Source: a virus. From it: a DNA stretch of 57,430 nt. Under the pieces are notes generated by a model. That model saw only the letters and a program-made list of their open reading frames with translations, was not told the DNA's origin and did not search any database. A program made the translations under genes and the position numbers. This document shows positions 1 to 49,696 of the stretch, one piece after another (the stretch's first letter is position 1; each line of letters opens with the position of its first letter). Where the stretch lies: IMG/VR virus record IMGVR_UViG_3300045988_128708; one strand, 5' to 3'.

Positions 1-2167
1 GCTGCAAATTTAACACTTTTCGAAAAATCCATGCACCGGAAATTCTGCTTGAGCCGAAACTACCGCTCAATCTGTTTTTCAGAAAAGCGTAGTCGACGCC
101 GATGTCGAACTGGTGTGATTTCTCCCAAGTGATGTCAGGGTTTGCAAGCTGAGTCTGTGCCACGCCAGGAGAGAACTCTTTGTCAAACCAGTATCCGTAT
201 CCTGTTGAGCTTCCGATAGATGCCGAATAAGGGTAGTAGCTGCTTATCGCCTGATTGCCCAACAGACCGTATGATGCTCTCAGCTTGAAGTTGTCCATGA
301 CGTTTTTGGCTGATTCCCAGAATGCCTCCTCCGAGATTCTCCATCCGGCAGAAACAGAAGGGAAGAAACCCCATCGGTTGTTGCCGATGAATCGCGACGT
401 TCCGTCGTAGCGTCCGTTGACCTCAAACAGGTATCTGTCGTCGAAAGAATAGTTTACTCTGAACAGGTATGAGAGCATCGCCCATGCGTGGCGTGCGCTT
501 GAGTTTGTCATTGTCGCGGCATCGCCGTTATTGAGGTCTTGGTAGCCGTCGTAATAATAATTCTTTCGTCCGGCAATCAGGTATGAGTAGTTGAGCTCTT
601 CCGACTGGAAGCCCATCAGGAGTTTAAGATAGTTCTTGCCGAAAGTGTTTTCGTATGTTCCAATCAGGTCGTATTGCTTGCGCACTTGCTTTGTGCGTTG
701 GTCCGACATCGATGATCCTGTTGTCGGGAACGAGCCTTTGAAAGCTCCGTTCTCGTATGTGTCGTAAGGCTTTACGAATGCGTTTGTCTCGCCATCGTTG
801 CGCTTCCAGGTGTATGCTCCGTAGATTGAAAGACCTTTCAGCGGAGTGATTGTCAGCGATGTCTTGATGATATATTCAGGAGCAGTGCTGTTTGATGTGC
901 ATCCTGTTCTGACCATTGCTATAGGGTTTGTGCCGTTGATGCCGTATCCGTATGTTCCATCGGCGTTGATTCCCGACATAATAGGTGTCATTGTCAACGC
1001 TTTGCCGATGATATTGGCAGGGGAGTCCATAACGGGCGATGTGGCATTGGCTTGGCGCACGCTGGCGTCGATTCCCAATTTCACCCATTTGTTGATTTTC
1101 ATGTCTGAGTTTAAGCGCAATGATGTGCGTGAGAACTTGTTGTTGTCAATCAAACCGTCTTGTGAGTAGTATCCGGCAGAGGCGAAAACTTTAATGAATT
1201 CGCTGCCGCCGCTCACGCCCACGGAGTAGTTTTGCACAATAGCCGAGCTCTTTATCACTTCGTTGCGCCAGTCGGTGTCGTAATAGTTGATTTGGTCAAC
1301 GCCACCATTTTTGTAAATATCTATTACGTTTGTGTAAAGGGGTTGTTGCAAGGCGTTTTGACGGGCAATGTCGACAGCCTGCATATATTCGATGGCAGTT
1401 GCCGGCTCTGGCAGGGTGGTGGGAGTGTTCATTCCTACGTAGCCGTTGAAAGTAACTGTCGGTTTGCCTTCGTAGCCGCGTTTTGTAGTAATCAGGATTA
1501 CACCGTTTGACGCGCGCGAACCGTAGATTGATGCAGAGGCGGCGTCTTTAAGAACTGATATCGTCTCGATGCTGTTGAGGTCTATTCGGTTGAAGTCGCC
1601 CTCCACGCCGTCGATAAGAATGAGCGGTGATGTGGATGAGTTGAGCGATCCCAGTCCTCTGAGTTTCAGAGAGGCCTGGTCGTTGCCAGGCTGTCCGGAG
1701 CTCTGCACTGCTGTAAGTCCCGGCACGATGCCCTGGAGGGCAGAAGAGCCGTTGGAGACGTTGGCTCTGAGGATGTCCTTGCTGTTGATGCTCTGTACGG
1801 CACCGGTAAGGTTTATTTTCTTCTGTGTGCCGTATCCCACAACGACCACATCGTCAAGGGCAGTTGCCGTCTGACGCATGACAATATCCTTTTGTGTTGC
1901 CTTCTTTGCATCGATTGTTATCGTCTCAGAACCTACAAACGTGAATTTCAATTTGGTCGGAGAGTTCAATTCAATTGAATATCTGCCGTCTGCGTCTGTA
2001 ACGCCGAGCGTGTTGCCGTCCTTGTTTGTGACGGCGACTCCGATCATCGGCTCTCCGCTTTCATCAACGACTCTGCCTTGCACTGTGAATGCTTGGGCAA
2101 GCGCCGTTTGCGACATAGCGAGAAATGCAAGAATCATGGAGGCGTTTAAAAATCTTTTCAGCTTCAT
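1..2167 (-). CDS. SusC/RagA-family TonB-dependent outer-membrane receptor, N-terminal ~722 codons (3' end runs off the window)
   Basis: Reverse translation from the ATG at 2167: MKLKRFLNASMILAFLAMSQTALAQAFTVQGRVVDESGEPMIGVAVTNKDG... This gives a signal peptide and a carboxypeptidase-regulatory-like domain, then a plug region (DDVVVVGYGTQKK; IETISVLKDAASASIYGSRASNGVILITTKRG). It is absent from the ORF track because there is no stop inside the window. Confidence 0.9.
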   Translation of the reverse strand, partial: MKLKRFLNASMILAFLAMSQTALAQAFTVQGRVVDESGEPMIGVAVTNKDGNTLGVTDADGRYSIELNSPTKLKFTFVGSETITIDAKKATQKDIVMRQTATALDDVVVVGYGTQKKINLTGAVQSINSKDILRANVSNGSSALQGIVPGLTAVQSSGQPGNDQASLKLRGLGSLNSSTSPLILIDGVEGDFNRIDLNSIETISVLKDAASASIYGSRASNGVILITTKRGYEGKPTVTFNGYVGMNTPTTLPEPATAIEYMQAVDIARQNALQQPLYTNVIDIYKNGGVDQINYYDTDWRNEVIKSSAIVQNYSVGVSGGSEFIKVFASAGYYSQDGLIDNNKFSRTSLRLNSDMKINKWVKLGIDASVRQANATSPVMDSPANIIGKALTMTPIMSGINADGTYGYGINGTNPIAMVRTGCTSNSTAPEYIIKTSLTITPLKGLSIYGAYTWKRNDGETNAFVKPYDTYENGAFKGSFPTTGSSMSDQRTKQVRKQYDLIGTYENTFGKNYLKLLMGFQSEELNYSYLIAGRKNYYYDGYQDLNNGDAATMTNSSARHAWAMLSYLFRVNYSFDDRYLFEVNGRYDGTSRFIGNNRWGFFPSVSAGWRISEEAFWESAKNVMDNFKLRASYGLLGNQAISSYYPYSASIGSSTGYGYWFDKEFSPGVAQTQLANPDITWEKSHQFDIGVDYAFLKNRLSGSFGSSRISGAWIFRKVLNLQ

Positions 2168-2326
2168 TATTCGTTTTTTTATCTTGGTTTGTTTATGTTT
2201 TATTCAGTATTCTCATATGGGGCACAGAACGAAGCGTATATGAGTCGGTCGGCTGAAAAATGGGTGAGGGGTTTGTGTTTCAACGAGTTAGGCGTGTGTG
2301 GTTGAAATGACGGCGTAAAACGAAGC

Positions 2327-13675: not shown

Positions 13676-14161
13676 TTAGTCTCGGTATAACTCCAAATTG
13701 AAATTATCCTTGCTCTTCCATCCGTCAGCCAGTGTGTCCTGGATATGCTGCATGGCTTTGGTATAGAAGTCCGCCAGTTCTTCGATGGTGCTGAACGTGT
13801 GATAGCATGGCACATCGTCTGTTCCGAACTTGAACGTGACTGGCAATGTCTTGCCGTCAGACTGCACAGCCAAGTCGTATGCCACCTTGTAGTTGAACTG
13901 GTTCTCGTTAGAGAGCCACACGCTCATGCCGTTCCACACGAAGCCAGAAAGTATGGTCTCGTTCGTGCGGTCGTTGAACCATTCCGACACCATGGTCTTG
14001 ATGGTATCCTCAGATGGCTTTCCGTTGAACTCAGCCTCCATATAGTCGGCAGATCCATCCTCGTTGTTATGCACGTCCCAGCGGACACGCCATTTTCCTT
14101 TGACGGGGTTGGTGCATTCAAGCAGCTTTACCCCTTGTGCTCCGTTTACTCTGTTCATCAT
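13676..14161 (-). CDS. 161-aa protein translationally coupled to the RT; DUF4376-like (fibre-assembly-associated family) suspected
   Basis: ATGA overlap with the RT stop. Pattern ...FVWNGMSVWLSNENQFNYKVAYDLAV...LPVTFKFGTDD...FSTIEELADFYTKAMQHIQDTLADGWKSKD. Confidence 0.5.
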   Translation of the reverse strand: MMNRVNGAQGVKLLECTNPVKGKWRVRWDVHNNEDGSADYMEAEFNGKPSEDTIKTMVSEWFNDRTNETILSGFVWNGMSVWLSNENQFNYKVAYDLAVQSDGKTLPVTFKFGTDDVPCYHTFSTIEELADFYTKAMQHIQDTLADGWKSKDNFNLELYRD

Positions 14162-15462
14162 GTGAAAATGTACTTTGTTCTACCTTTGCCGAAGGTTTCC
14201 GCCTTGATGGTGGTCTCGAATGGGAAGCCGTCTGGCATTTCACTCACTTGCTGGAGAATGTTTTTCATCTCCTCACTGTTGGTGAAGAACTTCTTCGGCT
14301 CGCCGTTCTGCTCGATGGACACGACACAGCGGTCTTCGCCCTGGCTGGTTTTGACCCCGACCTCGAAGTCTTTTACCACGATGGGCAGGTTCACCAACTC
14401 ACGGATGCTTACCACCGCACCCGCAAATCGCTTCTTGCCGTCTTCCGGCTTGTAAGCGACATTCAAATCTTTAAATGATTTCATTTTTTTGCCTGTTAAT
14501 TTATAAAACAAATTTCGGCAGCAAGCGTGCTTGGCTATTCCGTAGAATGACGCAATCAGTTCCCGCCGTCTCTTTCTTGACTTGACTTTGTGTAGTTTCC
14601 TTGCATTTTCCTTCTTGACGCGCTTGCGCAGTAGTGAGTATGAACCGTTATATGTCACATACCCCAAGAAGTCGATTCCTTGCGCTGAAGGGAACACCCT
14701 TTCGTTTTTCTTGATTTCAAGGTCAATTTTTTCGACTTGCTCATGTACAATGCCGTGTGCCAGCCAATTTTCTTGCTTGTTGCCACAGAGCACTCTGCCG
14801 TCATCACAATAACGGTAGAAATGGCGGATGCCATATTTGTCCTTCAGATAATGGTCGAGGAACACGGACAACAAGAGGTTGCCAGAAGCCTGTGAGCTTC
14901 GCAACCCGAAGCTGATGCCCTCTGGTAGTAGATGAAGGAAATGATCCAGGAGTGACAGCAGGGTCTTGTCTTTGAATACTCTGCGGTAGCACCACATGAC
15001 AAACTTAGGCTTAGTATTGTCATAGAAATGCTTGATGTCGAACTCGTAGCAGTAGCGTGTGCCTTCGGGGTCACGTTCCATGTCCAATTGCATGCATTTG
15101 CGGAGATCATGTGTGCCGCGCTTCTTTATACTTGCTCCAGTCGTCCTGATGAAACGCTTGTGCAGATGTTGGTCCACCACGTTCATCACTGCATACACTG
15201 CGATGCGGTCGTACATGGAGATAATCTGCAGGTGACGGACTTTGCCGTATTCACAGATGGTGCGCTCGTGGTAGCCACCGAGGCGGAAAGACCCGTCGGC
15301 AAGTTTTGCAGTCTGTTCTGCAATCACCTCCTCGCGGTGTGCGAGCAGATAGCGTCCTTGACGGCATCTCTTTCGCTTTTTCCCACGCAGTACACGGTCA
15401 AACGCCTCCGAAATATTGCCGTAGGACGTTATCTCTTGCATGATATAGCCTTCTCTGAGCAT
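14158..15462 (-). CDS. DGR-type reverse transcriptase with ~110-aa C-terminal extension
   Basis: 434 aa. Collinear by eye with Bordetella bRT: ITSYGNISEAFDRVLRGKKRKR, KVRHLQIISMYDRIAVYAV, RGTHD, FDIKHFYDN, FGLRSSQ (DGR xGxxxSQ motif), YCDD at aa 218-221, GIDFLGY. Confidence 0.85.
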   Translation of the reverse strand: MLREGYIMQEITSYGNISEAFDRVLRGKKRKRCRQGRYLLAHREEVIAEQTAKLADGSFRLGGYHERTICEYGKVRHLQIISMYDRIAVYAVMNVVDQHLHKRFIRTTGASIKKRGTHDLRKCMQLDMERDPEGTRYCYEFDIKHFYDNTKPKFVMWCYRRVFKDKTLLSLLDHFLHLLPEGISFGLRSSQASGNLLLSVFLDHYLKDKYGIRHFYRYCDDGRVLCGNKQENWLAHGIVHEQVEKIDLEIKKNERVFPSAQGIDFLGYVTYNGSYSLLRKRVKKENARKLHKVKSRKRRRELIASFYGIAKHACCRNLFYKLTGKKMKSFKDLNVAYKPEDGKKRFAGAVVSIRELVNLPIVVKDFEVGVKTSQGEDRCVVSIEQNGEPKKFFTNSEEMKNILQQVSEMPDGFPFETTIKAETFGKGRTKYIFT

Positions 15463-15658: not shown

Positions 15659-15779
15659 TTAGATTTCCAGGCGCGAGCCGACATACGCAAACGCATACGA
15701 GGCATCGTTACTCGCATTCGCACCCGAGACACCGCCACACGCGAACGCATAGCGACACCCGCGATAGACCACACGGCCT
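15659..15779 (-). repeat. DGR repeat copy in the template-repeat (TR) position: non-coding, ~196 nt upstream of the RT
   Basis: Reverse complement is identical to 41652..41772 (fibre 3' end). Here it follows an in-frame TAA and sits in intergenic DNA 59 nt after the stop of the 77-aa gene. The sequence is A-depleted, which is VR-like rather than TR-like. Confidence 0.6.
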
Positions 15780-15838: not shown

Positions 15839-16072
15839 TTACACAATGAGCCAAAATAACATTGCAATGAAGCCTCCGAGCACTGTGCAAGCCCAGTCAA
15901 TCCAGTCCCAATGACAGCCGTGAAGCTTGTCTTTGAGTTCGAGGCATGAGGCTGCGATGATGGCAGAATAGATGGCTGCCCATGGCGACAATGCACACAG
16001 ACCGACCAGTAAACCGCCGACAAGATGCTTATAGCGGTTGCTTTTTTTTAGAAATGAGAAAATTTTGTTCAT
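15839..16072 (-). CDS. Small membrane protein (77 aa, 2-3 TM); holin or immunity-type role possible
   Basis: Hydrophobic stretches LVGGLLVGLCALSPWAAIYSAIIAASCL and WACTVLGGFIAMLFWLIV. Confidence 0.55.
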   Translation of the reverse strand: MNKIFSFLKKSNRYKHLVGGLLVGLCALSPWAAIYSAIIAASCLELKDKLHGCHWDWIDWACTVLGGFIAMLFWLIV

Positions 16073-35001: not shown

Positions 35002-38000
35002 ATGGCACTGACAGAAGAAGAGAAAAAGGAACTGGTCCAGGATGTGGTGAACCAGATAAAGACTGACAGCCAGAGTGTGGACGAACTGGAAACGGTAAGC
35101 ACGCTGGACGGTGTGGTGAGCCTCCCGGCCATGAGAGGCGAGACGGTGGTGAGCGCTCCGCTGAAATTGCTGTCAAAACCTGCGGAGGATGCAGCTGCTG
35201 TCGCCAACTCTTCTGCTGCTGCGGCTGACGCATCGGCAAAGAAAGCTGATACGGCAGCATCAACAGCGGAGACAGCGGCCCAAACCGCCAACGATGCGGC
35301 AAGCAAGGCCACTGATGCCGCCCAAAAGACCAATGCTGCCGTGACAAAGGCAGAGAGCGTGGAAGCGGAGTACAAGGACACGGCACTGGCTGCGAGGAAC
35401 GGCGCGACAGCGCGGTTTGACGGGCTGGTGGAAGGCGTGGAGATACGACTTGTATCATGCCTCCAGATAGACGGTGTGTACTATGACACGGTGAACAAAT
35501 CCTTCTGCGGGAAGAATGGTAACATATACTGCAATAACTGGCCTGGCGCAGACATGTACATGAACGATGTGCGCACGGAAGTACTGAAAGACAAAGCGTA
35601 TGTGTGCGGTGGCGTGGTGTATGTGTGGAGCGACGAGGAAGAGAACCTGGTGGAGATAAGCGGAAGCGGCGGTGGCAACACCTATAACGTGACGGAGCAG
35701 GTTCCACTGGAGAGCGGATACTATACGCTTGAGACCGCCATAGCAGCCGTGGAGGAGAAGAAACGTGCGAAGGGACGCTGTATTACCTACGAGACGGCAC
35801 AGGGCAAATGGGAAACCAAGCAGTTCAAGGGCACGAACATCGAGAGCTGGGAGCAGGCGGCGAGTTGGGAGGACTTTGGCGGCGACGGCACGGTGAAGAG
35901 CGTGACGCTGAACGGCAAGAAGCTGGAACCAGGCGAGGACGGCAACGTTGCTATCACCATCAGCGAGACGGAGGTGGACGAGAGTCTGAACGCAAGCTCG
36001 ACGAACCCGGTGCAGAACGCTGCTGTGACGGCAAAGCTGATGGAGATAGAGGCGAGTACCGTTTTAGGCATGAATGCCGAACTGAGTGACGACGGCAGCA
36101 GCGTGCGCCTGGCACTGACCAACAAGAGCGGTGCGGAGATAGCGTCTGCGGACATTCCGGCAGGAAGCGGCGGTGGAGGCGGTGACGCTTCGACCACGAA
36201 AATCGTGCTGGATGCAGCCGTCAGCAAGACCATCATCAAGGAAGGTGACAGTGCGATGCTGACATGGACGTATGACCACCAGTACAGCAGCGGTGACGAG
36301 AAAGGCACATCCACGGGTCAGAAGGCAACAGTCAGCATTGAGATGAAGAGGGGCGCGACCGTGATGTATGCAGACACGCAGCATGATGTTAGCAAGGGAA
36401 CCTATACCCTGGATCTGACGAAATACCTGCTGCTCGGAACGACAGACATCTATGTGAGGGCTACCACAACCGACCCGACCACCGGCAAGACACAGACAAG
36501 GCAGAGCTATGTGAGCGTGAAGGCTGTGACCCTTGCACTGAGCAGCAGCTTCAACATAGCCGAGTGTGTCGCCAAGGGCGGCTACGGTGTGAGCGAGGCG
36601 GTGAACATCCCCTTTGCGGTGAGCGGAAGCGGCGACAAAACCGTGACGCTGTATCTGGACGGACACCAGTGGGACTCGCAGACGGTGAAAAGAAGCGGCA
36701 CGACGAACGGCAGTTTCTCCTTGTCGATGTCGGGAGTGAGCATCGGCCGGCACACGGTGCAGATCGTCGCCGAGATGGAGGCGAGCTCGGAGCTGACGCT
36801 GAAGAGTGAGAGCATCTACTTTGACATTCTGAAGGCCGGACAGAACGCCCCGTATATCGGCACGAAGCTGACCTTCGGTGACGGACGCATTTTTGCGGAC
36901 GACCATCTGACCCCGACTATTGAAACCGGGCAGTATGAGCAGGTGAGATTTGACTTTGTGGCGTATGACCCGACAACGACCCCAGCGACGGTGGGTGTGT
37001 GGCGAGACGGCATTCGTACGCAGACGGTGAGCGTTCCGAGGACGACGCAGGTATATACAAACCGTTTCCTGGAGCAGGGCGACGTGGCCATGGTGCTGAA
37101 GTGCGGCACTACGGAATACAAGCTGAACGTGAAGGTGACGGAGAGCGGCATTGACCTGAGCGAGGCGACTGCCGGACTTGTGCTGAAACTGACGGCAGCC
37201 GGCAGAAGCAATGCCGAGAGCGAGCCTGCTGAATGGCGTTATAACGACGTTCAAACGGTGTTTGAAGGCTTTGACTGGCAGAGCAACGGCTGGACGGGCG
37301 ACGCGCTGAAACTGACGAACGGGGCAAACATCGAGATAGGTTACAAGCCATTTGCCAATGACGCCACCACGACAGGTGCGACCTACGAGATGGAACTGAC
37401 CTGCAGTAATGTGACCGACCGCAAAGGCACGGTGGTGGACTGCATGGCTGGCAATGTCGGTTTCAGACTGACCACGCAGGAGGCGTTGATGCGGACGGGC
37501 GCAGGCTCGGAAGTGGGCACGAAGTTCGCGAGCGGTATGACACTGAAGATAGCCTTCGTGGTGCAGGAGAAGAAGGGCAACCGACTGATGATGCTGTATG
37601 TGAACGGCATCCTATGCGGCGCGAAGCAGTATGCCTCGACGGACTCGCTGCTCCATGAAGAACCCACGAACATAAAGATCACGAGCGAGAGCGCGGATGT
37701 GGAGGTGCGGAACCTGCGCGTGTACAGCCGTGCGTTGGGTGATGATGAGGAACTGTCGAACTATATGGTGGACCGTCCGACAAGCGACGAGATGGTGGTG
37801 CTGTTCGAGAAGAACCAGGTGATGGACGACGAGGGCACTGATATCGATATAGACAAACTGCGTGCGATGGGCAAGAGCGTGATGAGGATCGTGGGCGACG
37901 TGAACCTTGTGAACCAGACGAACAACAAGAAGTTTGAGGTTCCGGTGGACATCTACTTCTACTCTGCCTACGGTAAGGAGTATGACTTCATCATCTACCA

Positions 38001-41000
38001 GTGCGGACTGAGAATACAAGGCACCTCATCGACGACCTACCCGAGAAAGAACTACCGCATCTACTTCAGCCGCTCGACGAAGTACGGCACTAAGCTGTAT
38101 GTGAACGGTGTGGAGGTAGCGGACTTCAAATATTCGTTCAAACCAGGTGCAAGACCGATAGACATATTCTGTCTGAAGGCGGACTTCTCGGACTCTTCAT
38201 CTACGCATAATACGGGTGCGGTGAGAGTGGTGAACGACATCTGGAAGAGATGCGGCTGGCTGACTCCGCCACAAATGGCCTACAAGGGCAACTACGATGT
38301 GAGAATCGGCGTGGACGGTTTCCCGATAGATTTGTTCTACGACAACAACGGCACGGGTGAGAACGTGTATCTTGGCAAGTACAACTTCAACAACGAGAAG
38401 AGCGGCAGCGGCATCATCTACGGCTTTGAGGGTATCGAGGGCTTCAATGACGAGGCTGCACTGAAGGGCGGGCGCAACAAGTGTATCTGTCTGGAGTTCC
38501 TGAACAACTCGGAGACATTGTGTCTGTTCGGTACGAGCAACATGGACACGTTTGACGACGCTCTGGAGTTCCGCTTCAAGGCCGACGACACATGGGCGAC
38601 GGCGCATGAGGACGACAAGGCGGCAGTGAAGCGCCTTTGGGAGTGGATATACTCGTGCAAGGGCAACCCGACGAAATTCCTGAACGAATATGCGGAATAC
38701 TTCGGCAACGACTCGCCATTTGCATGGTATCTGATAACGGACTACTTCATGGCTGTGGACAACCGCGCGAAGAACATGATGCTCGTGACGTGGGACGGCA
38801 AGATATGGTACTTCATCCCATACGACATGGACACGGTGTTCGGTGAGCGCAACGACTCAGTTCTGAAATACGACTACACGATAACGTGGGAGACGGTGGA
38901 CGAGAGCATCGGCTCGTATGCGTTTGCAGGACACGATTCCGTGTTGTGGGAACTTGTGAGAGGCTGTCCGGACAAATTGAGGGAGGTGGCAGACAAGCTG
39001 CGAAGCACGATGTCGCTGGAGTATGTGCTGAAGGTGTTCAATGAGGAAATGATGGGCAACTGGTGTGAGCGCATCTACAACAAGGACGGCATCTACAAGT
39101 ACATCAAGCCGCTGACGGAGGGTGTGACGACGGCAGACGGCACTACGAGTTACTATGACTATCTCTATGCACTCCAGGGCAGCCGATACGCGCACCGCAC
39201 CTATACCATCCAGAACCGCTTTGCATTGCTGGACAGCCAGTATGTGTGCGGTACATACAGAAAGGACAGTTTCGCGGCCTACTTCGGCTATAAGTTCGGA
39301 AGTGACAACCGGAAGATAAGAATCACGGCGAGCGAGAGGTATTTCTTCGGGTACGGCTACACGAGCGGTACGCCGCACGAAAGCGCAGTGCTTGCGGAGG
39401 ACACGGGAAGTCAGGTGGAACTGACGCTTGACACGGACCTCATCGTGAATGACCCGCAATACATCTACGGTGCGAGCCGCATCATGGGGCTTGACTTGAC
39501 GGACGTTAGCCATGCCATACTCCAGACTCTGAACTTGAACAACTGTTCAGCCCTGAGGACGCTTGACGTGAGCTGCGGCCAGACACAGACAACGCTGAAC
39601 GCATTGCTGGTGAACGGCTGCCGAAACTTGCGTACCCTGAATATGACCGGCTTGAAGTCAGGCAGTTTCACCGGCATAGACTTGAGCAACAACACGAAGC
39701 TGGAGACACTGAAGGCAGGCAAGACAGCCCTGACCGGCGTGAACTTCGCACAGGGTGCTCCGCTGACGAGCGTAACGCTCCCGGCAACGTTGCAGACACT
39801 GGAACTGCGCTATCTGGGCAAACTGACGACCAGCGGTCTGACGCTTGAGGGCACAAGCAACATCAACAGACTTGTGGTTGACAATTGCCCGGGTGTGGAC
39901 TGGCAGACGTTGCACGCAAGGTGCGGAAACGTGAAGTATCTGCGTGTGACGGGCATCGACATGGAAGGCGACGGCAGCCTGCTGGCCTCACTGATGCAGA
40001 CGGGCGGTGTGGACGAGAATGGCGGAAACGTGGAGAGCTGCCGACTGGTGGGCACATACCGACTGACCCGTTACGTTGATGATGAAACCTATGCTGCATA
40101 CATCGAGCACTACCCTGAGTTGAACATCGAGCAGCCTGAATATACAATGCTGGAGAGCGACGAGAGCGTGGCAGACGATGCAAATCTCTCGAACTTGGAT
40201 AACGGCACGGGCTATAAGTACGGCAACGACTACAAGCCAAGCGGCCATGTGGCTGCTATACTGAAGAACCGCCACAGAGTGCTGGCGAAGGTGACAAAGA
40301 AGGCGACCACGAGGAACGTGAACATCGCGAATGTCGATACCATGGTGAACAATCTGGACGGCGAGATGACTTACATGGAGCTTGACGATACGGACAGCAC
40401 CAAGTATGCCGACGGGACCCCTGCCAAACTTGACGGCAGCGAGGGTGACCTGATGATGCACGAGCCTTTCTTCTGGAGCAAGGGTGTGAATGACTTCTTG
40501 AACAGCAAGGACTACAGTTGCTACAGCTCGAATGACAAGGATCACATGCCGGCTGTGCCGAATGTGGACGTATTGACGCTTGATGACATCAAGGCGGTGC
40601 AGGGCGGTTACACTAAAGGCAGGAAAGTGATGAGTGGCAGGGACACCATAGCAAATGCCATGAGCACGGACAGCTCTTATTCGGTGTGCGTGGTAGATGT
40701 GTCGAAGCACAAACGTGTCCGTTGGCCGAGTGTGCCAGGCACGAATCTTGTGGGCAGCGTATTTGCCGACGTGAACGGCAATGTGGTGAAGAGCATCGTA
40801 GTGCCAACGCTGGGTAACAGATTTGAGGCTGGCATGTATCTCATCAGCGATGTGCCTGAGGGAGCCAAGACTTTATACTTCTCTATATTGAACACAGCCG
40901 AGTTTGACAAGGTGGTGCTATCCAACAGCAGCAAGATAGAGGATATGGAGCCTGAATGGTTTGCCAACGATGAGCATCTGTGCGCTGTTGTGGGCAGTTC

Positions 41001-41772
41001 TGTTGTGGGCAGCAAGCTGCGTGCCTGCATAACGGGCGGCAGCACTACAGCAAGCATGACATGGACGGACTTCCATTATTACAGCGTGCAGCGAGGTATG
41101 CAGCAGATTGACGCTCTGATGCACTTCCGCATCGCGAACCTTGCATACGCGAAGTATGGCAGGAGAAACATGCAGGAGCAGTGTGGCGCCGGCTCGCATA
41201 CGAATATGCGCACGACTGGCGGCACGATGTCAAGAGGCATGCAGGACACTATAGGCTATGAGGGCGCAAAGGCAATCAACCCGAATGTGACAAACAGTCT
41301 GGTGGACGAGAACAGAGTGCACCAATATGCCTGGTATGTGGACAAGGACGAGTATGGTGCTGCAAAGGTGACGCAGGTGAACAATATCTGCTGCCTGGGC
41401 TATGAGGACATCTACGGACACAAGTATGACATGATGGACGGTGTGGACTTGCCGAACACGAGCGGCAATGAGGGCAAGTGGCGCATTTGGATGCCTGACG
41501 GCAGCACGATCATGATAAAGGGTACGACAACCAGCGGTAACTGGATAACGGCAGTGGCTCATGGAAGGCTGATGGCGGTAGTGCCAGTAGGCTCGATGAA
41601 TGGCTCGTCGAGCACATACTATACAGACGTGTACTGGATAAGCACAGCCACAGGCCGTGTGGTCTATCGCGGGTGTCGCTATGCGTTCGCGTGTGGCGGT
41701 GTCTCGGGTGCGAATGCGAGTAACGATGCCTCGTATGCGTTTGCGTATGTCGGCTCGCGCCTGGAAATCTAA
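35002..41772 (+). CDS. Giant multidomain tail fibre, DGR target protein (Ala-rich N-terminus, LamG-like, CotH-like, LRR, C-terminal CLec-like variable region)
   Basis: 2256 aa. LamG-type ending VEVRNLRVYSRALGDDEL (~37160-37770). CotH-like motifs CGLRIQGTSSTTYPRKNYRIYF, FCLKADFSDSSSTHNTGA, WYFIPYDMDTVFG (~37945-39200). LRR (~39480-40000). C-terminus ...GRVVYRGCRYAFACGGVSGANASNDASYAFAYVGSRLEI. Confidence 0.8.
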   Translation: MALTEEEKKELVQDVVNQIKTDSQSVDELETVSTLDGVVSLPAMRGETVVSAPLKLLSKPAEDAAAVANSSAAAADASAKKADTAASTAETAAQTANDAASKATDAAQKTNAAVTKAESVEAEYKDTALAARNGATARFDGLVEGVEIRLVSCLQIDGVYYDTVNKSFCGKNGNIYCNNWPGADMYMNDVRTEVLKDKAYVCGGVVYVWSDEEENLVEISGSGGGNTYNVTEQVPLESGYYTLETAIAAVEEKKRAKGRCITYETAQGKWETKQFKGTNIESWEQAASWEDFGGDGTVKSVTLNGKKLEPGEDGNVAITISETEVDESLNASSTNPVQNAAVTAKLMEIEASTVLGMNAELSDDGSSVRLALTNKSGAEIASADIPAGSGGGGGDASTTKIVLDAAVSKTIIKEGDSAMLTWTYDHQYSSGDEKGTSTGQKATVSIEMKRGATVMYADTQHDVSKGTYTLDLTKYLLLGTTDIYVRATTTDPTTGKTQTRQSYVSVKAVTLALSSSFNIAECVAKGGYGVSEAVNIPFAVSGSGDKTVTLYLDGHQWDSQTVKRSGTTNGSFSLSMSGVSIGRHTVQIVAEMEASSELTLKSESIYFDILKAGQNAPYIGTKLTFGDGRIFADDHLTPTIETGQYEQVRFDFVAYDPTTTPATVGVWRDGIRTQTVSVPRTTQVYTNRFLEQGDVAMVLKCGTTEYKLNVKVTESGIDLSEATAGLVLKLTAAGRSNAESEPAEWRYNDVQTVFEGFDWQSNGWTGDALKLTNGANIEIGYKPFANDATTTGATYEMELTCSNVTDRKGTVVDCMAGNVGFRLTTQEALMRTGAGSEVGTKFASGMTLKIAFVVQEKKGNRLMMLYVNGILCGAKQYASTDSLLHEEPTNIKITSESADVEVRNLRVYSRALGDDEELSNYMVDRPTSDEMVVLFEKNQVMDDEGTDIDIDKLRAMGKSVMRIVGDVNLVNQTNNKKFEVPVDIYFYSAYGKEYDFIIYQCGLRIQGTSSTTYPRKNYRIYFSRSTKYGTKLYVNGVEVADFKYSFKPGARPIDIFCLKADFSDSSSTHNTGAVRVVNDIWKRCGWLTPPQMAYKGNYDVRIGVDGFPIDLFYDNNGTGENVYLGKYNFNNEKSGSGIIYGFEGIEGFNDEAALKGGRNKCICLEFLNNSETLCLFGTSNMDTFDDALEFRFKADDTWATAHEDDKAAVKRLWEWIYSCKGNPTKFLNEYAEYFGNDSPFAWYLITDYFMAVDNRAKNMMLVTWDGKIWYFIPYDMDTVFGERNDSVLKYDYTITWETVDESIGSYAFAGHDSVLWELVRGCPDKLREVADKLRSTMSLEYVLKVFNEEMMGNWCERIYNKDGIYKYIKPLTEGVTTADGTTSYYDYLYALQGSRYAHRTYTIQNRFALLDSQYVCGTYRKDSFAAYFGYKFGSDNRKIRITASERYFFGYGYTSGTPHESAVLAEDTGSQVELTLDTDLIVNDPQYIYGASRIMGLDLTDVSHAILQTLNLNNCSALRTLDVSCGQTQTTLNALLVNGCRNLRTLNMTGLKSGSFTGIDLSNNTKLETLKAGKTALTGVNFAQGAPLTSVTLPATLQTLELRYLGKLTTSGLTLEGTSNINRLVVDNCPGVDWQTLHARCGNVKYLRVTGIDMEGDGSLLASLMQTGGVDENGGNVESCRLVGTYRLTRYVDDETYAAYIEHYPELNIEQPEYTMLESDESVADDANLSNLDNGTGYKYGNDYKPSGHVAAILKNRHRVLAKVTKKATTRNVNIANVDTMVNNLDGEMTYMELDDTDSTKYADGTPAKLDGSEGDLMMHEPFFWSKGVNDFLNSKDYSCYSSNDKDHMPAVPNVDVLTLDDIKAVQGGYTKGRKVMSGRDTIANAMSTDSSYSVCVVDVSKHKRVRWPSVPGTNLVGSVFADVNGNVVKSIVVPTLGNRFEAGMYLISDVPEGAKTLYFSILNTAEFDKVVLSNSSKIEDMEPEWFANDEHLCAVVGSSVVGSKLRACITGGSTTASMTWTDFHYYSVQRGMQQIDALMHFRIANLAYAKYGRRNMQEQCGAGSHTNMRTTGGTMSRGMQDTIGYEGAKAINPNVTNSLVDENRVHQYAWYVDKDEYGAAKVTQVNNICCLGYEDIYGHKYDMMDGVDLPNTSGNEGKWRIWMPDGSTIMIKGTTTSGNWITAVAHGRLMAVVPVGSMNGSSSTYYTDVYWISTATGRVVYRGCRYAFACGGVSGANASNDASYAFAYVGSRLEI
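41652..41772 (+). repeat. DGR variable repeat (VR) at the 3' end of the fibre gene
   Basis: Identical to the reverse complement of 15659..15779. The 37 codons at 41653-41763 contain only 10 A, none at a third position. Remaining A-codons are tat, aat, aac, agt and gat. GC-rich end ggctcgcgcctgg is IMH-like. Confidence 0.75.
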
Positions 41773-41968
41773 CTAATCGGCGTACAACGATGGGGACGTG
41801 TCCCTAATGTGGAGCCGAGGGAAACGAGCCACAGCAAAAGCACCAATATAAAGGTGGAAAGCTGAAACATCAAGTGTCGGGCAATAGAGTTTGGTAGGTC
41901 GGTAACGATTCGAAGAAGTTTGGCCCGGGGAAAGGAAGGCCCTTATCTTCCATAAAACAAAAAAGACA

Positions 41969-43273
41969 ATGCTCAGAGAAGGCTATATCATGCAAGAGAT
42001 AACGTCCTACGGCAATATTTCGGAGGCGTTTGACCGTGTACTGCGTGGGAAAAAGCGAAAGAGATGCCGTCAAGGACGCTATCTGCTCGCACACCGCGAG
42101 GAGGTGATTGCAGAACAGACTGCAAAACTTGCCGACGGGTCTTTCCGCCTCGGTGGCTACCACGAGCGCACCATCTGTGAATACGGCAAAGTCCGTCACC
42201 TGCAGATTATCTCCATGTACGACCGCATCGCAGTGTATGCAGTGATGAACGTGGTGGACCAACATCTGCACAAGCGTTTCATCAGGACGACTGGAGCAAG
42301 TATAAAGAAGCGCGGCACACATGATCTCCGCAAATGCATGCAATTGGACATGGAACGTGACCCCGAAGGCACACGCTACTGCTACGAGTTCGACATCAAG
42401 CATTTCTATGACAATACTAAGCCTAAGTTTGTCATGTGGTGCTACCGCAGAGTATTCAAAGACAAGACCCTGCTGTCACTCCTGGATCATTTCCTTCATC
42501 TACTACCAGAGGGCATCAGCTTCGGGTTGCGAAGCTCACAGGCTTCTGGCAACCTCTTGTTGTCCGTGTTCCTCGACCATTATCTGAAGGACAAATATGG
42601 CATCCGCCATTTCTACCGTTATTGTGATGACGGCAGAGTGCTCTGTGGCAACAAGCAAGAAAATTGGCTGGCACACGGCATTGTACATGAGCAAGTCGAA
42701 AAAATTGACCTTGAAATCAAGAAAAACGAAAGGGTGTTCCCTTCAGCGCAAGGAATCGACTTCTTGGGGTATGTGACATATAACGGTTCATACTCACTAC
42801 TGCGCAAGCGCGTCAAGAAGGAAAATGCAAGGAAACTACACAAAGTCAAGTCAAGAAAGAGACGGCGGGAACTGATTGCGTCATTCTACGGAATAGCCAA
42901 GCACGCTTGCTGCCGAAATTTGTTTTATAAATTAACAGGCAAAAAAATGAAATCATTTAAAGATTTGAATGTCGCTTACAAGCCGGAAGACGGCAAGAAG
43001 CGATTTGCGGGTGCGGTGGTAAGCATCCGTGAGTTGGTGAACCTGCCCATCGTGGTAAAAGACTTCGAGGTCGGGGTCAAAACCAGCCAGGGCGAAGACC
43101 GCTGTGTCGTGTCCATCGAGCAGAACGGCGAGCCGAAGAAGTTCTTCACCAACAGTGAGGAGATGAAAAACATTCTCCAGCAAGTGAGTGAAATGCCAGA
43201 CGGCTTCCCATTCGAGACCACCATCAAGGCGGAAACCTTCGGCAAAGGTAGAACAAAGTACATTTTCACATGA
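41969..43273 (+). CDS. DGR-type reverse transcriptase with C-terminal extension (mirror of 14158..15462)
   Basis: Exact copy. Here it lies 196 nt downstream of the fibre stop codon, on the same strand. Confidence 0.85.
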   Translation: MLREGYIMQEITSYGNISEAFDRVLRGKKRKRCRQGRYLLAHREEVIAEQTAKLADGSFRLGGYHERTICEYGKVRHLQIISMYDRIAVYAVMNVVDQHLHKRFIRTTGASIKKRGTHDLRKCMQLDMERDPEGTRYCYEFDIKHFYDNTKPKFVMWCYRRVFKDKTLLSLLDHFLHLLPEGISFGLRSSQASGNLLLSVFLDHYLKDKYGIRHFYRYCDDGRVLCGNKQENWLAHGIVHEQVEKIDLEIKKNERVFPSAQGIDFLGYVTYNGSYSLLRKRVKKENARKLHKVKSRKRRRELIASFYGIAKHACCRNLFYKLTGKKMKSFKDLNVAYKPEDGKKRFAGAVVSIRELVNLPIVVKDFEVGVKTSQGEDRCVVSIEQNGEPKKFFTNSEEMKNILQQVSEMPDGFPFETTIKAETFGKGRTKYIFT

Positions 43274-43755
43274 TGAACAGAGTAAACGGAGCACAAGGGG
43301 TAAAGCTGCTTGAATGCACCAACCCCGTCAAAGGAAAATGGCGTGTCCGCTGGGACGTGCATAACAACGAGGATGGATCTGCCGACTATATGGAGGCTGA
43401 GTTCAACGGAAAGCCATCTGAGGATACCATCAAGACCATGGTGTCGGAATGGTTCAACGACCGCACGAACGAGACCATACTTTCTGGCTTCGTGTGGAAC
43501 GGCATGAGCGTGTGGCTCTCTAACGAGAACCAGTTCAACTACAAGGTGGCATACGACTTGGCTGTGCAGTCTGACGGCAAGACATTGCCAGTCACGTTCA
43601 AGTTCGGAACAGACGATGTGCCATGCTATCACACGTTCAGCACCATCGAAGAACTGGCGGACTTCTATACCAAAGCCATGCAGCATATCCAGGACACACT
43701 GGCTGACGGATGGAAGAGCAAGGATAATTTCAATTTGGAGTTATACCGAGACTAA
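43270..43755 (+). CDS. RT-coupled 161-aa DUF4376-like protein (mirror of 13676..14161)
   Basis: Exact copy. ATGATG overlap at 43270-43275. Confidence 0.5.
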   Translation: MMNRVNGAQGVKLLECTNPVKGKWRVRWDVHNNEDGSADYMEAEFNGKPSEDTIKTMVSEWFNDRTNETILSGFVWNGMSVWLSNENQFNYKVAYDLAVQSDGKTLPVTFKFGTDDVPCYHTFSTIEELADFYTKAMQHIQDTLADGWKSKDNFNLELYRD

Positions 43756-43809
43756 GAACAATCCCTTCGGGGGAGGGTAATAAAAAAGCCCCCGGCCTGT
43801 TAAAATAGT

Positions 43810-43930
43810 CGTCTCACTTACTTTTTTAACACACGTTACCATCAATAGGCACGACCGGGGGCGTAAACCCTCGCTCGCCTATTGATGGCTTTTTTTATGT
43901 GTGTGCGCGATGCGCTATGTAAGTGAGACG
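43810..43930 (+). ncRNA. Structured intergenic element downstream of the RT operon
   Basis: Outer stem cgtctcacttac (43810-43821) pairs with gtaagtgagacg (43919-43930). The inner hairpin is the terminator at 43839-43896. A gcgc gat gcgc mini-hairpin lies at ~43905-43915. Confidence 0.4.
43839..43896 (+). terminator. Strong rho-independent terminator of the RT operon
   Basis: ccatcaataggc (43839-43850), 26-nt loop, gcctattgatgg (43877-43888), then c plus ttttttt (43890-43896). Confidence 0.7.
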
Positions 43931-43957
43931 GTGCAAAAGTACTAAATTTTTCTGAGA

Positions 43958-44200
43958 ATGAAACTAATAGAGATACTGAATTTGAACAGGGAATTGCTAA
44001 TTTACCTCCAAAAGGCAGGAATCAGGCTGGACGATGTGCAATATATCGACCTATTTAAGGAATACCGCACACTTTCCGCACAAGGCGAGAAGGTGTCATA
44101 TATCGTGGCAAGGCTCGCCACAGAATATGCCATAAGCGAGCGCAAGGTGTACAGCCTTATACGGCGTTTCAAAACTGACTGCAATCTACTTGCAGTGTAA
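43958..44200 (+). CDS. Mor/C-like activator (mirror of 13231..13473)
   Basis: Exact copy. Confidence 0.5.
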   Translation: MKLIEILNLNRELLIYLQKAGIRLDDVQYIDLFKEYRTLSAQGEKVSYIVARLATEYAISERKVYSLIRRFKTDCNLLAV

Positions 44201-44271
44201 CATTTGCGTATGGTCATTGTCGAGGGGACACGCGTTGTTACCTTTGCACCGTTTTCAAATTCAAAACGGTT

Positions 44272-44910
44272 ATGAACAAATACCATCAAATTTTACAGAA
44301 GGTACTTACTCTGGGCAAGTGCCAGACTAACAAGAAGGGAAGCATACGTTACCTGCTCAACGAGCCGTTGGTGCTTTCCCCTGCTGACCTGCTCGACATA
44401 TTCGAGGGGCACGGCCTCGCACGAAAGAAGTTAAAGAACGAGCTGCAGCTCTTCATGCAAGGTGAACGCAATGTGGAGAAGTATCGCGAGGTGGGCATCA
44501 ACTGGTGGGACTACTGCGGTGCCATTCTCGTAAACTCCTACCCTACCTACTTTGAGAAGCTGCCGCCACTCATCGCCAAAATCAACCGAGAGAAGCGCAA
44601 CAGCAAGAACTATGTGCTGTTCCTCGGCTCCACCGATGCGGAGACAAACCAGGCACCGTGTCTGTCACTCGTTCAGTTCCAGATTGAGAACGACGAATTA
44701 GTGGTGTCGGCTTACCAGCGCAGCTCGGACGCGAACCTCGGCTTGCCGGCCGACATCTACCACCTCTACCTCATGACCCGGCAGATTGACCTCCCTTTGA
44801 AGTCCATCACGCTGAACCTTGCGAATGTGCATATCTACGAGAACAACATCGAACACACACGACAGTTGCTCAACGGAAACGAGAACGTGAAATTTGAACT
44901 AAACGTATAA
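44272..44910 (+). CDS. Thymidylate synthase-family enzyme (mirror of 12521..13159)
   Basis: Exact copy. Confidence 0.7.
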   Translation: MNKYHQILQKVLTLGKCQTNKKGSIRYLLNEPLVLSPADLLDIFEGHGLARKKLKNELQLFMQGERNVEKYREVGINWWDYCGAILVNSYPTYFEKLPPLIAKINREKRNSKNYVLFLGSTDAETNQAPCLSLVQFQIENDELVVSAYQRSSDANLGLPADIYHLYLMTRQIDLPLKSITLNLANVHIYENNIEHTRQLLNGNENVKFELNV

Positions 44911-44913
44911 GAC

Positions 44914-45753
44914 ATGAGAAGACAATATTTATCGGCACCGCTCCCTTTCGTGGGGCAGAAGCGCATGTTCGCGCGTGAGTTTATCAAGGTTCTAAAACAA
45001 TATCCAGAGGACACGGTATTCGTGGATTTGTTCGGCGGTTCGGGTCTGCTGTCGCACATCACCAAGTGCCAGAAGCCAAATGCCACAGTCATATACAACG
45101 ACTTCGACGGCTACCGCAACCGCCTACAGCACATCCCGCAGACCAACCACCTTTTGGCTGACCTGCGCAAAATGGTGGAAACGGAAGGCATACCCAAGCA
45201 CAGCTGCATCCGTGGTGAACTGCGCGACCGCATATTCGCTCGTTTGGAGCAAGAGGAACGAGAGGTCGGGTACATTGACTTCATCACCATTTCTTCCGGA
45301 CTGATGTTCTCCATGAAATACAAATTGAGCATCCCCGAAATGAAGAAGGAGGCTCTATACAACAATCTCCGCAAGTCAGACTATCCTACTTGTGAGGACT
45401 ATCTTGAAGGTATCACAGTAGTATCATGCGACTACAAAGAGGTGTTCGCCCGATACAAAGACATGCCGAATGTTGTGTACCTTGTTGATCCGCCCTATCT
45501 ATCCACCGACGTTGGCACATATAATATGTACTGGAAACTTTCCGACTACCTCGATGTGCTGACCATTCTTGCCGGACATCACTTTATATATTTCACTTCC
45601 AACAAGTCATCCATTATTGAGCTTTGTGAATGGATGGGCAAGAACCCGACCGTGGGCAACCCATTCAAGAACTGCCACAAGGTGGAGTTCAACGCCACAG
45701 TAAACTACAGCTCGCACTACACAGACATGATGTTGTTCACCGATGCCGCCTAA
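44914..45753 (+). CDS. Dam-like D12 methyltransferase family protein (mirror of 11678..12517)
   Basis: Exact copy. Confidence 0.75.
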   Translation: MRRQYLSAPLPFVGQKRMFAREFIKVLKQYPEDTVFVDLFGGSGLLSHITKCQKPNATVIYNDFDGYRNRLQHIPQTNHLLADLRKMVETEGIPKHSCIRGELRDRIFARLEQEEREVGYIDFITISSGLMFSMKYKLSIPEMKKEALYNNLRKSDYPTCEDYLEGITVVSCDYKEVFARYKDMPNVVYLVDPPYLSTDVGTYNMYWKLSDYLDVLTILAGHHFIYFTSNKSSIIELCEWMGKNPTVGNPFKNCHKVEFNATVNYSSHYTDMMLFTDAA

Positions 45754-45838
45754 CGGCGTTATAATTCAATTCTAACGGCATTAAAAAGCCCCGGCGGTAA
45801 ATTATCCGTCGGGGCTAAATCGTTGCGACATGGGCGGT

Positions 45839-46240
45839 TTATCGCAATAGGTAACGCACCGCATAACAGTCGATGCTTTCAAGTATCTCTTCGTGGTTGT
45901 GGTTGGTGTTCGTCTCAACAAGCGCCATGCCGTTAAAATCATCACCACTCAATCCGTCAAGGGCTGTATGCACCTGGTGGCAAAGGTCGAAAGCTGCATC
46001 ATGGCCACCGTCAGCCCAGTCTGTCACAAGGTGAATAGTAACAAGTCCCTTGCCACGCTGACTGCCACCTTGAAATGGTGACCACTCTATCTTTCCAAAC
46101 TCCACAAAGACGGCTGGACGCGCCCATCCTTCTTCCTGCTCTACAAACTCCACATTGTGGTTCCACAAATCAATGTGCTGCACTTCAGGCACATCGCTCG
46201 CCAGTTTTGCTTTAATGGCGTTGAATAATTCCTTTCTCAT
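45839..46240 (-). CDS. Putative head-tail connector protein (mirror of 11191..11592)
   Basis: Exact copy. Confidence 0.4.
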   Translation of the reverse strand: MRKELFNAIKAKLASDVPEVQHIDLWNHNVEFVEQEEGWARPAVFVEFGKIEWSPFQGGSQRGKGLVTIHLVTDWADGGHDAAFDLCHQVHTALDGLSGDDFNGMALVETNTNHNHEEILESIDCYAVRYLLR

Positions 46241-46794: not shown

Positions 46795-47017
46795 AGTCGA
46801 ATTTTAGAAACGTCTGTGCCTCTTGTGGCACTTCGTTCTTAGGGTCACAAGAGGCATTAAGGAGGTTGTAGAAGGTACGCTCACATATACCATAAACAGG
46901 ATACACGTACCTTCGCCATATCTCGCGGTTGCTGATTCCGCTTTTGGCATGTTGGTCGTATATCCTATTTATGTCTGTGACACGTTTCTGATAGCTTGCT
47001 CCTCGCCTCTTGCTCAT
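46739..47017 (-). CDS. Putative DNA-binding protein (mirror of 10414..10692)
   Basis: Exact copy. Confidence 0.45.
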   Translation of the reverse strand: MSKRRGASYQKRVTDINRIYDQHAKSGISNREIWRRYVYPVYGICERTFYNLLNASCDPKNEVPQEAQTFLKFDFDDEPGHTENYPQYPKRR

Positions 47018-47025
47018 AAAATGTT

Positions 47026-47214: not shown

Positions 47215-47226
47215 GTCTCTTCGCTT

Positions 47227-47895: not shown

Positions 47896-47934
47896 TGTAG
47901 TAAACTTTTTGTTGATTATTATTTTGATTGCTTA

Positions 47935-48587: not shown

Positions 48588-48589
48588 AT

Positions 48590-49042: not shown

Positions 49043-49053
49043 CTCAGTTATGT

Positions 49054-49695: not shown

Positions 49696-49696
49696 A

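Follow-up and report, generated by a model that had tools for sequence, protein, structure and literature searches.

The described system closest to the locus analysed here is the diversity-generating retroelement (DGR) of the Hankyphages. These phages, which include Bacteroides phage p00 and the B. thetaiotaomicron jmh hankyphages, are Mu-like and transposable, and carry MuA/MuB-type genes, a Mu portal and Mu F, a variable copy (VR) at the 3' end of an ORF of ~2250 aa, a repeat of ~113-117 nt made up of AAY-GCG codons, and genes for ThyA and a DNA methyltransferase (MTase) downstream of the reverse transcriptase (RT). In the published genomes, VR and the template copy (TR) are adjacent direct repeats at the right end, in the order tail fibre with VR, TR, RT, Avd, ThyA and MTase. 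A C-type lectin domain has been reported for the homologous Hankyphage ORF (Benler 2018, PMC6199706), and the TRs have been reported to be identical, without substitutions (Benler 2018, PMC6199706; PLoS Biol 2025, PMC12135933). In the canonical DGR, the TR 'remains unchanged', with the directionality of transfer imposed by a divergent IMH segment (Guo 2011, PMC3240598), and targets lying tens of kb from the RT within one prophage have been documented (Wu 2018, PMC5758913). Loss of template adenines has been modelled as slow point mutation in a theory preprint (10.64898/2026.02.18.706561). In the engineered DGRec system in E. coli, the cDNA recombines with the TR, which leads to progressive dA loss and a narrower search space (10.64898/2026.07.21.739853, 10.64898/2026.06.12.731847); this process is driven by recombineering proteins, and its authors contrast DGRec with natural DGRs. 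Our search of the literature found no report of natural, burst-like template erosion that matches the VR.

We analysed a viral DNA of 57,430 nucleotides (IMG/VR record IMGVR_UViG_3300045988_128708; the whole stretch is hereafter called the window), which, judged from its gene content, is a Hankyphage-like, Mu-type transposable prophage of the gut that carries a DGR. Its Mu-like genes encode a transposase (phrog_310), an AAA_22 MuB-like protein, DUF3164, Portal_Mu, Phage_Mu_F, the terminase, and head and tail proteins, and the host flank differs in every relative's contig, as in random insertion. The features of the Hankyphage group, namely the MuA/MuB-type transposition genes, the Mu portal, Mu F and random insertion sites, were thus all found, together with a giant tail-fibre-like target gene, ThyA and a D12 methyltransferase. 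The RT (434 aa; 14158..15462, minus strand, mirrored at 41969-43273) carries the GLRSSQ and YCDD motifs in its translation, matches RVT_1 (36 bits, above the cut-off) and phrog_1423 (E 6e-96), and shares 67-71% amino acid identity with the annotated Hankyphage RT, in keeping with a DGR-type enzyme; an NCBIfam search gave sub-threshold similarity to group II intron RTs only. The RT stop codon is overlapped by an ORF of 161 aa (13676..14161, minus strand, mirrored at 43270-43755; phrog_19239), which is 64% identical to the jmh72_hp ORF annotated as 'Avd' in Hankyphage records; since it has no Avd family match in Pfam or NCBIfam and only a weak one to DUF4376, it is called Avd-like here.

The spacer between TR and RT contains the structured RT-3 RNA (Rfam RF03068; 15504..15656, minus strand, the mirror of 41775-41927). 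The right-arm copy matches the model over its full length (142.8 bits, E 1.5e-36), the left copy is identical to it through the perfect inverted repeat, and the spacer is 95-100% conserved among relatives. No structural difference from the known motif was seen, and the RNA can here be placed as the TR-to-RT spacer of Hankyphage-like DGRs, so that a TR beside the RT with a structured spacer RNA, as is usual for DGRs, is present. On the other side of the TR, and directly upstream of it here, lies an ORF of 77 aa (phrog_38535; 15839..16072, minus strand), the last gene of the terminase-portal-Mu F block. The target (tail-fibre) gene occupies 35002..41764 on the plus strand, and its product shares 77% identity with the Hankyphage tail fibre over the C-terminal 531 aa; a PDB sequence search with the C-terminus returned nothing useful. 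The VR lies at the 3' end of this ORF, and the true gene runs 23 codons past it.

We then compared the gene order with those of relatives. In more than 100 independent contigs the order is portal, Mu F, 77-aa gene, TR, RT-3 spacer, RT, Avd-like ORF and ThyA. The published Hankyphage gene order is not that of the window, where the block from TR to MTase (TR, RT-3 spacer RNA, RT, Avd-like ORF, ThyA, MTase) lies downstream of Mu F, on the strand opposite to the target gene and ~26 kb away from it. The VR of this lineage sits ~278 nt short of the phage's right end; in IMG/VR contig 3300045988_078176, for instance, whose first bases fall within the VR, the RT is found at 26.5 kb. In many relatives, on the other hand, VR and TR are neighbouring direct repeats, and both architectures are common in the wider family. 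We considered an inversion of the 26-kb middle segment between the two architectures and dropped it; the annotated Hankyphage map looks like a relocation of the TR-to-MTase block. In the relatives and in a sister contig of the window's prophage described below, TR and VR share the GC-rich 3' segment GTCGGCTCGCGCCTGG, after which their flanks differ, reading CCTTTCGCGG... at the VR and AAATCTAAC... at the TR; the VR-type flank is missing from the window owing to a chimeric join. This resembles the arrangement of the BPP-1 DGR (IMH versus IMH*; Doulatov 2004, Guo 2011 PMC3240598), and by this analogy it would be the one expected to keep the flow from TR to VR one-way.

A comparison of the whole window with itself showed that bases 1-15779 are the perfect reverse complement of 41652-57430, with the first mismatch at 15780, leaving only 15780-41651 as unique sequence, in which the plus strand carries the genes for head, tail and target and the minus strand those for packaging. 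Positions 1..2215, beyond the left phage end (about 2188-2216), are host DNA encoding a SusC-like TonB-dependent receptor, and this DNA is mirrored at 55216-57430, giving ~2.2 kb of host sequence per arm; the similarity of relatives with other host flanks to the window ends at 55215-55243. Since the same left end and the same host flank mirrored on both sides are impossible for one transposable prophage, the window is a foldback misassembly, and its mirror arms are an in-silico artefact. Downstream of the VR, all relatives have CCTTCCGCGG..., a further 23 codons (ending ...SRLAFRGKLVRAQSVAAYKALSEAA and the stop) and ~278 conserved nt, beyond which their contigs diverge into differing host DNA, marking the right phage end. 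This true VR-downstream sequence (CCTTTCGCGG...), present in every relative and in the sister contig, was not found in the window, where the artefactual arm (41765..57430, plus strand), the reverse complement of 1-15666 joined to the VR, stands in its place; the foldback thus cost the window the ~278 nt downstream of the VR, the right phage end and the right host flank. The target ORF of the window (35002-41772) accordingly has 2256 aa and ends ...SRLEI, its last 8 nt (41765-41772) being TR flank, with a spacer of 193 nt between its end and the RT gene in the right arm. An exact look-up of this protein gave no record, and all 13 of the sampled target-cluster members that reach the C-terminus (cluster of 3390 members) end ...SRLAFRGK.... 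The last ~54 nt of the window were also tried as a phage end; they match none, and are no more than a stretch that departs from the SusC gene found intact in the sister contig.

This sister contig, ENA ERZ27263635 k119_41155 (68,974 nt, MEGAHIT), is the same prophage, correctly assembled. Stretches of 8.3 kb and 13.5 kb are 100% identical to the window, and a comparison over 22.2 kb gives only 5 differences, all of them in the VR. In the flanking host DNA, SusC/SusD lie to its left and a ROK regulator, DUF4434 and an MFS transporter to its right, and its target gene encodes 2276 aa ending ...SRLAFRGKLVRAQSVAAYKALSEAA, the true length of the protein. The fold in the window fits the architecture of the lineage: as TR and VR are inverted with respect to each other, a collapse of both copies in the assembly graph yields an inverted duplication such as that seen here.

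We next turned to the repeat itself. The TR/VR homology spans 113 nt, and the allele found in the window, here called V1, occurs at the TR position (15667..15779, minus strand), a genuine locus, and with 0 differences at the VR position (41652..41764, plus strand), which may be the real VR of the sample or part of the folded-back arm. Read on the minus strand, the copy at 15667..15779 is preceded by the flank of the 77-aa gene and followed by the RT-3 spacer RNA and then the RT, and this adjacency to the RT-3 spacer makes it the template by position. The composition of the 111 nt at 41653-41763 is 10 A, 43 G, 31 T and 27 C, the adenines falling 3, 7 and 0 times at the first, second and third codon positions in the codons TAT (four times), AAT, AGT, AAC and GAT. 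These counts agree exactly with those of the first-pass annotation, which had also described the mirror copy as base-for-base the same allele, as is indeed the case for the minus strand of 15667-15779 inside the perfect inverted repeat. The depletion is extreme, not unique, as ~0.2% of the 111-nt stretches of the window contain 10 or fewer adenines. The annotation had further found no third, A-rich copy, and two scans of both strands concur: the best other ungapped match in the window to a 124-nt segment has 53/124 identities, and an adenine-tolerant scan, in which any mismatch was allowed where the subject is A, returned the two known copies only.

The A-rich template that is lacking in the window was found in the family. 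One invariant A-rich TR of 113 nt occurs in 83 of the 113 TR-position copies surveyed, some contigs having been fetched as more than one locus. It has 26 adenines and 13 AAY codons, and reads TAC AAC AAT GCG AAC GCG AAT GGC GGT GTC TCG AAT GCG AAT GCG AAT AAC GAT, followed by GCC TCG AAT GCG AAT GCG AAT GTC, so that the earlier proposal that V1 is a diversified AAY-GCG-AAY-GCG-AAY sequence is borne out by the stretches AAC GCG AAT and AAT GCG AAT GCG AAT. V1 retains 11 adenines in 113 nt and two AAY codons (AAT and AAC), and is thus no A-rich template. It differs from the family TR at 16 sites, 15 of them at template adenines (chance ~6e-11; replaced by T in 8 cases, G in 6 and C in 1) and one a C-to-T change. 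A TR/VR pair differing only at template adenines is therefore absent from the window as printed, where the two copies are identical, and present in the strain and the family. Strain L001 has an intact TR, yet its RT protein is identical to that of the window, its spacer is 100% identical and the adjacent flank of 400 nt is 99.75% identical, from which it follows that the change to V1 is recent. Against the Hankyphage reports of unsubstituted TRs, the TR of the window has lost 15 of 26 adenines and equals its VR.

Does V1 truly occupy the template locus? The TR-position allele of the window's own sample is known from contigs only, and four non-folded assemblies made with different programs (MEGAHIT, JGI, SPAdes and Logan) join V1 to the flank of the 77-aa gene. 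The sister contig and JGI 3300056372 Ga0252408_000403 cross the whole locus, from the 77-aa flank through V1 to the RT side, with no foldback. In the SPAdes assembly ERZ1309924, NODE_5036 extends from Mu F across the 77-aa gene and breaks off exactly 55 nt into V1, while its partner NODE_507, coming from the target gene, ends after these 55 nt too, and the Logan contig ERR260245_69326 (k=31) joins the 77-aa flank to V1 and stops 30 nt in. The VR also begins V1-like, over its first 55 nt in ERZ1309924 and its first 33 nt in JGI 3300056372. A sequence that is genuinely shared shows up in a de Bruijn graph as contig ends lying k or k-1 bases inside the repeat. If the TR were the family allele, its context and that of the VR would have no more than 23 nt in common, too short a stretch to link the graph unless real reads do so. 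As for the independence of these data, the JGI 3300056372 contig ends at most 6 nt from the window's end and is probably from the same sample, and ERZ1309924 and ERR260245 might come from one run.

It is conceivable that the strain has an ordinary A-rich TR, and that bubble-popping or low-k reuse placed the VR variant V1 at the TR position, after which it was duplicated. The window is demonstrably misassembled at the TR/VR repeat itself, and many public contigs of the family break inside the VR or collapse the VR onto the TR flank (L180-L182, L189-L197, L006/L192, L009/L195, L041, L061 and L103). MEGAHIT and SPAdes reuse low-k contigs, and a chimeric join could in principle be carried forward. 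However, the four assemblies that place V1 beside the 77-aa flank include a k=31 unitig contig, and bubble resolution should favour an A-rich TR present at full coverage. In addition, the differences between TR (V1) and VR (here called V2) in ERZ27263635 are interleaved (positions 83/84 and 95/96), a pattern that k-mer switching cannot create, and the step from V1 to V2 needs a V1-like template, as the family TR would re-randomise the 16 sites that both share. A pure assembly artefact is thus very unlikely, and the A-poor allele at the template position is, as far as these assemblies indicate, real biology. The first-pass annotation had suggested that the duplication overwrote the TR in silico; the duplication is indeed an in-silico foldback, but it did not remove an A-rich template, as the four non-folded assemblies indicate.

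The junction of target, V1, RT-3 and RT might also be real in part of the population, if recombination between the inverted TR and VR flips the 26-kb segment and both isomers are mixed in the contig. Recombination can act on perfect inverted repeats of 113 bp, and an inversion would make exactly the junction at 41764/41765. It cannot, however, duplicate 15.8 kb or place one host flank on both sides, neither the window nor any locus examined contains the reciprocal junction (77-aa flank, repeat, VR-downstream sequence), and the protein ending ...SRLEI is without any record; we therefore consider this explanation highly improbable.

We then asked what the sister contig tells about the use of this template. 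V2 equals V1 with 5 changes, at segment positions 15, 63, 75, 84 and 96, all of which fall on the 11 adenines of V1 (P = 3.3e-6), and no other difference occurs in 22 kb. Both alleles share all 16 substitutions relative to the family TR, which homing from that TR would re-randomise, so the template linking V1 and V2 must be V1-like; furthermore, V1 keeps A where V2 has G, so V1 is not derived from V2. The depleted template thus seems to be still in use, V2 having presumably arisen by homing from V1. All five changes are A-to-G, which is somewhat skewed for DGR mutagenesis.

Other VR variants of the V1 lineage were sought in public collections, and none besides V2 was found. Exact searches with a V1 29-mer and with a 42-mer in which a V1 adenine was left free had no match in IMG/VR and the JGI metagenome contigs, the 15 sampled of the 3390 target-cluster members included no variant of the lineage, and look-ups of the tail protein returned known datasets only. 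A near-identity search of GenBank phages gave no match for the left junction and one partial match, ending inside the VR, for the right junction. The evidence for ongoing activity in the V1 strain is accordingly one allele pair and the analogy with other lineages described below, which together suggest it.

The opposite reading is that the DGR of this strain is dead: with the TR overwritten and equal to the VR, nothing would diversify, and V2 would be an unrelated polymorphism. TR and VR are indeed identical in the window, the first 33-55 nt of the VR are V1 in JGI 3300056372 and ERZ1309924, and the collections yielded no further variants. Nevertheless, this reading is unlikely, in view of the placement of all five V2 differences on V1 adenines with none elsewhere in 22 kb; of the RT, RT-3 RNA and Avd-like ORF, which are intact and match those of strains with a normal TR exactly or almost exactly; and of the eroded TRs of L110/L112, L175 and L060, which coexist with VRs varying further at the remaining adenines. 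The other suggestion of the first-pass annotation, that the TR was gene-converted by the VR in vivo, is upheld in substance, but its corollary that this would cripple diversification is too strong. V1 keeps 11 adenines, 10 of them in codons, the VR of the sister contig differs at 5 template adenines, and other eroded lineages diversify. The repertoire falls from 25 codon adenines to 10, which would mean roughly nine orders of magnitude less nominal DNA sequence space, and is not abolished.

To see how far such erosion extends, 246 TR-position copies (86 alleles) were each compared with the nearest adenine-richer allele, copies with target-type upstream flanks being excluded. As a result, at least eight further lineages were found to have an eroded TR with genuine TR flanks, in which every change is at an adenine of the nearest intact TR: L175/L008 (8 changes), L413/L427 (9 changes, all in the 3' half), L110 and L112 (3 changes; the isolate genomes of Phocaeicola coprocola DSM 17136 and P. 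plebeius DSM 17135), L060 (15 changes), L161 (6 changes), L051 (8 changes), L342 (10 changes) and L078/L378 (7 changes). The restriction to the 3' half in L413/L427 (ERZ925214 k127_86062 and ERZ27263807 k141_35327) has the polarity that integration of cDNA would be expected to give. L103, L006/L192, L009/L195 and L041, which were candidates for eroded templates as well, were rejected, as they have the target-gene flank upstream and represent VR/TR collapses or deletions. Where the VR is complete (L175, L110, L112, L060 and L161), it carries all of the TR substitutions and extra changes only at the remaining TR adenines, numbering 6 in L175, 2 in L060, 1 in L161, 7 in L110 and 6 in L112. The L051 contig begins inside the VR, and the 77 nt present are identical to the TR-position copy. 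L110 and L112 have one eroded TR in common and differ in their VRs. This sharing and the nested VRs indicate that eroded templates are inherited, spread between hosts and keep templating. The window and these eight or more lineages thus depart from the BPP-1 rule, in that their TRs carry adenine-specific substitutions matching the VR, and no eroded templates were described in the Wu 2018 survey (PMC5758913), relative to which the foldback is a side effect of the window's architecture.

Ordinary point mutation under selection could also have removed the template adenines, as a slow 'TR evolution' with no copying from VR or cDNA, and gradual loss of TR adenines in stable environments is what the theory preprint (10.64898/2026.02.18.706561) predicts. 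Against this, 16 changes are packed within 72 nt of the window's template, compared with L001, which matches the window at 99.75% in the 400-nt flank and at 100% in the spacer and has the same RT protein; the new TR equals a VR allele; and other lineages show 6-15 simultaneous adenine-only changes nested in their VRs. We regard point mutation as extremely improbable. The recurrent erosion looks rather like a reverse flow of information, from the VR or the cDNA into the TR, insofar as the comparison of alleles can tell.

The extra differences bear on the route of this flow. Per remaining adenine, the eroded pairs show 0/11, 5/11, 2/11, 1/20, 6/18, 7/24 and 6/24 extra differences, and intact TR/VR pairs in relatives typically differ at 10-15 of 26 sites, almost all at A. 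The lower rate in eroded pairs leans to direct copying from VR to TR in some cases, including the window; alternatively, mutagenised cDNA may have mis-homed into the TR before a fresh round of homing. Gene conversion between homeologous copies of 113 bp that are 87% identical should be inefficient.

Taken together, we consider it probable that V1 overwrote the TR in vivo, that the resulting identity of TR and VR made the assembler fold back, and that the depleted template remained usable. In the proposed history, the family TR would first have given a VR equal to V1 by normal homing. V1 would then have been written into the TR, replacing 15 of the 26 template adenines together with the single C-to-T change, either by gene conversion from the VR or by mis-homing of mutagenised cDNA into the template. 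TR and VR would thereby have become identical inverted repeats of 113 bp, and overwriting of the TR by a VR-type allele would so have led to the foldback of the assembly: the assembler would enter the repeat from both ends of the unique region and exit on the RT side both times, producing two mirror-image arms of 15.8 kb and losing the true VR-downstream end. Homing from the TR, now equal to V1, would have given V2 in one population, and afterwards only the remaining adenines of V1 could vary. As a broader proposition, which we favour only slightly, natural DGRs may not be strictly one-way, a selected VR allele or mutagenised cDNA being recurrently written into the Hankyphage-like template. 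The outcome is the same as in DGRec, except that the erosion occurs in natural prophages, including isolate genomes, and that the eroded TR often equals the resident VR, suggesting copying from the VR.

These results have practical consequences for sequence analysis. Where inverted TR and VR have turned identical, assemblers yield foldback contigs with inflated genome lengths and false C-termini. Software for finding DGRs requires adenine mismatches and an A-rich TR, and such detectors will miss elements with an eroded template.

Finally, DGR biology and software, recent theory and the Hankyphage papers regard the template as a master copy that is invariant or drifts very slowly, whereas the template of this globally common gut phage family appears to change in bursts, only at adenines and matching the variable copy, with altered templates that apparently remain functional in at least nine lineages, including cultured isolates. 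This would be the counterpart in nature of the template decay by which engineered DGR mutagenesis is limited, and would provide a concrete mechanism for the shrinking or lock-in of a DGR repertoire; the natural allele series from the family TR through V1 to V2 allows the direction and rate of information flow to be tested. If the proposition holds, write-back would fix chosen residues, since non-adenines are copied faithfully, and would leave fewer adenines free to vary, so that, as with a ratchet, the search space would close in on a receptor-binding solution that has succeeded, and the strain of the window, with 15 of 26 adenines lost and its TR equal to its VR, would be the most extreme case so far.

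Comparison of the window with the public locus L446 (PV107408.1, 31509-42606) revealed two kinds of DGR arrangement in the Hankyphage-like family. In the published Hankyphages, the tail fibre gene with its VR, a small ORF, TR, RT, Avd, ThyA and MTase form a co-directional block at the right end, whereas in the window lineage the TR-to-MTase block (11678-15779, minus strand) is encoded on the strand opposite to the target gene (35002-41764, plus strand), downstream of Mu F and 26 kb from the VR. The 34 nt directly upstream of TR are kept in both architectures, and both are found among isolates. The TR-to-RT spacer of Hankyphage-like DGRs is RT-3 RNA (Rfam RF03068), matched over its full length with 143 bits (41775-41927, plus strand; 15504-15656, minus strand). 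It presumably corresponds to the spacer RNA of BPP-1, from which synthesis of the cDNA is primed.

Of the 16 positions at which V1, the A-poor allele of the window, departs from the A-rich family TR, one is not an adenine: C25 has changed to T (TAC to TGT; 41675-41678, segment positions 24-27), and both the TR-position and the VR-position copies have this change. The lineage of L413 (ERZ925214 k127_86062) and L427 (ERZ27263807 k141_35327) encodes an RT identical to that of the window, and its TR is eroded in the 3' half only, with nine adenine changes between positions 62 and 96. Such a 3'-biased tract is the pattern that partial cDNA integration would give.

The true VR-downstream region, which is missing from the window, was recovered in the public locus L403 (19529-19810). 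There, the true target stop codon is followed by two hairpins, the first strong and 16 bp long (AGAACGGGGTTCGGATGGTGTCCGGACTCCGTTCT), the second a GC hairpin (ACCGGCGTAAGCCGGT), and the right phage terminus comes after both. Folded together, the two gave z = -3.9; they may serve as a terminator or as a homing-site structure, or may combine the two functions.

The insertion site of the prophage lies upstream of a polysaccharide-utilisation locus, with a ROK-family regulator on one side and a SusC/SusD pair on the other (L403, 19825-22748; L447, a further public locus, 1-4584). On the SusC side, the window, JGI 3300056372 and ERZ27263635 have the same flank, while the ROK-side flank is seen in ERZ27263635 only; a single lysogen lineage appears to be common to the three datasets. 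Over its final ~54 nt (57377-57430, and likewise 1-54) the window diverges from the sister contig in ERZ27263635, whose SusC gene is intact (1015 aa) and continues GACTATTACGTGCGC..., and this tail matched none of the phage ends compared with it. The JGI contig carries the same ~54-nt tail followed by 6 further nt. The SusC gene seems to be interrupted or variant at this point in the sample, which is probably why the contig ends.

A further overlap of exactly 55 nt was observed between NODE_507 and NODE_5036, SPAdes contigs of the same strain from ERZ1309924, in the terminase region (window 19867-19921). This points to another branch point for the sample, arising from strain variation or a repeat.

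Many public contigs of the family stop inside the VR (IMG/VR loci L180-L182, L189-L197, L213, L215-L216, L218, L220, L224 and L230), and in others a VR/TR hybrid copy links the target gene straight to the TR flank (L006/L192, L009/L195, L041, L061 and L103). DGR repeats systematically give rise to contig breaks and chimeric C-termini in viral catalogues.
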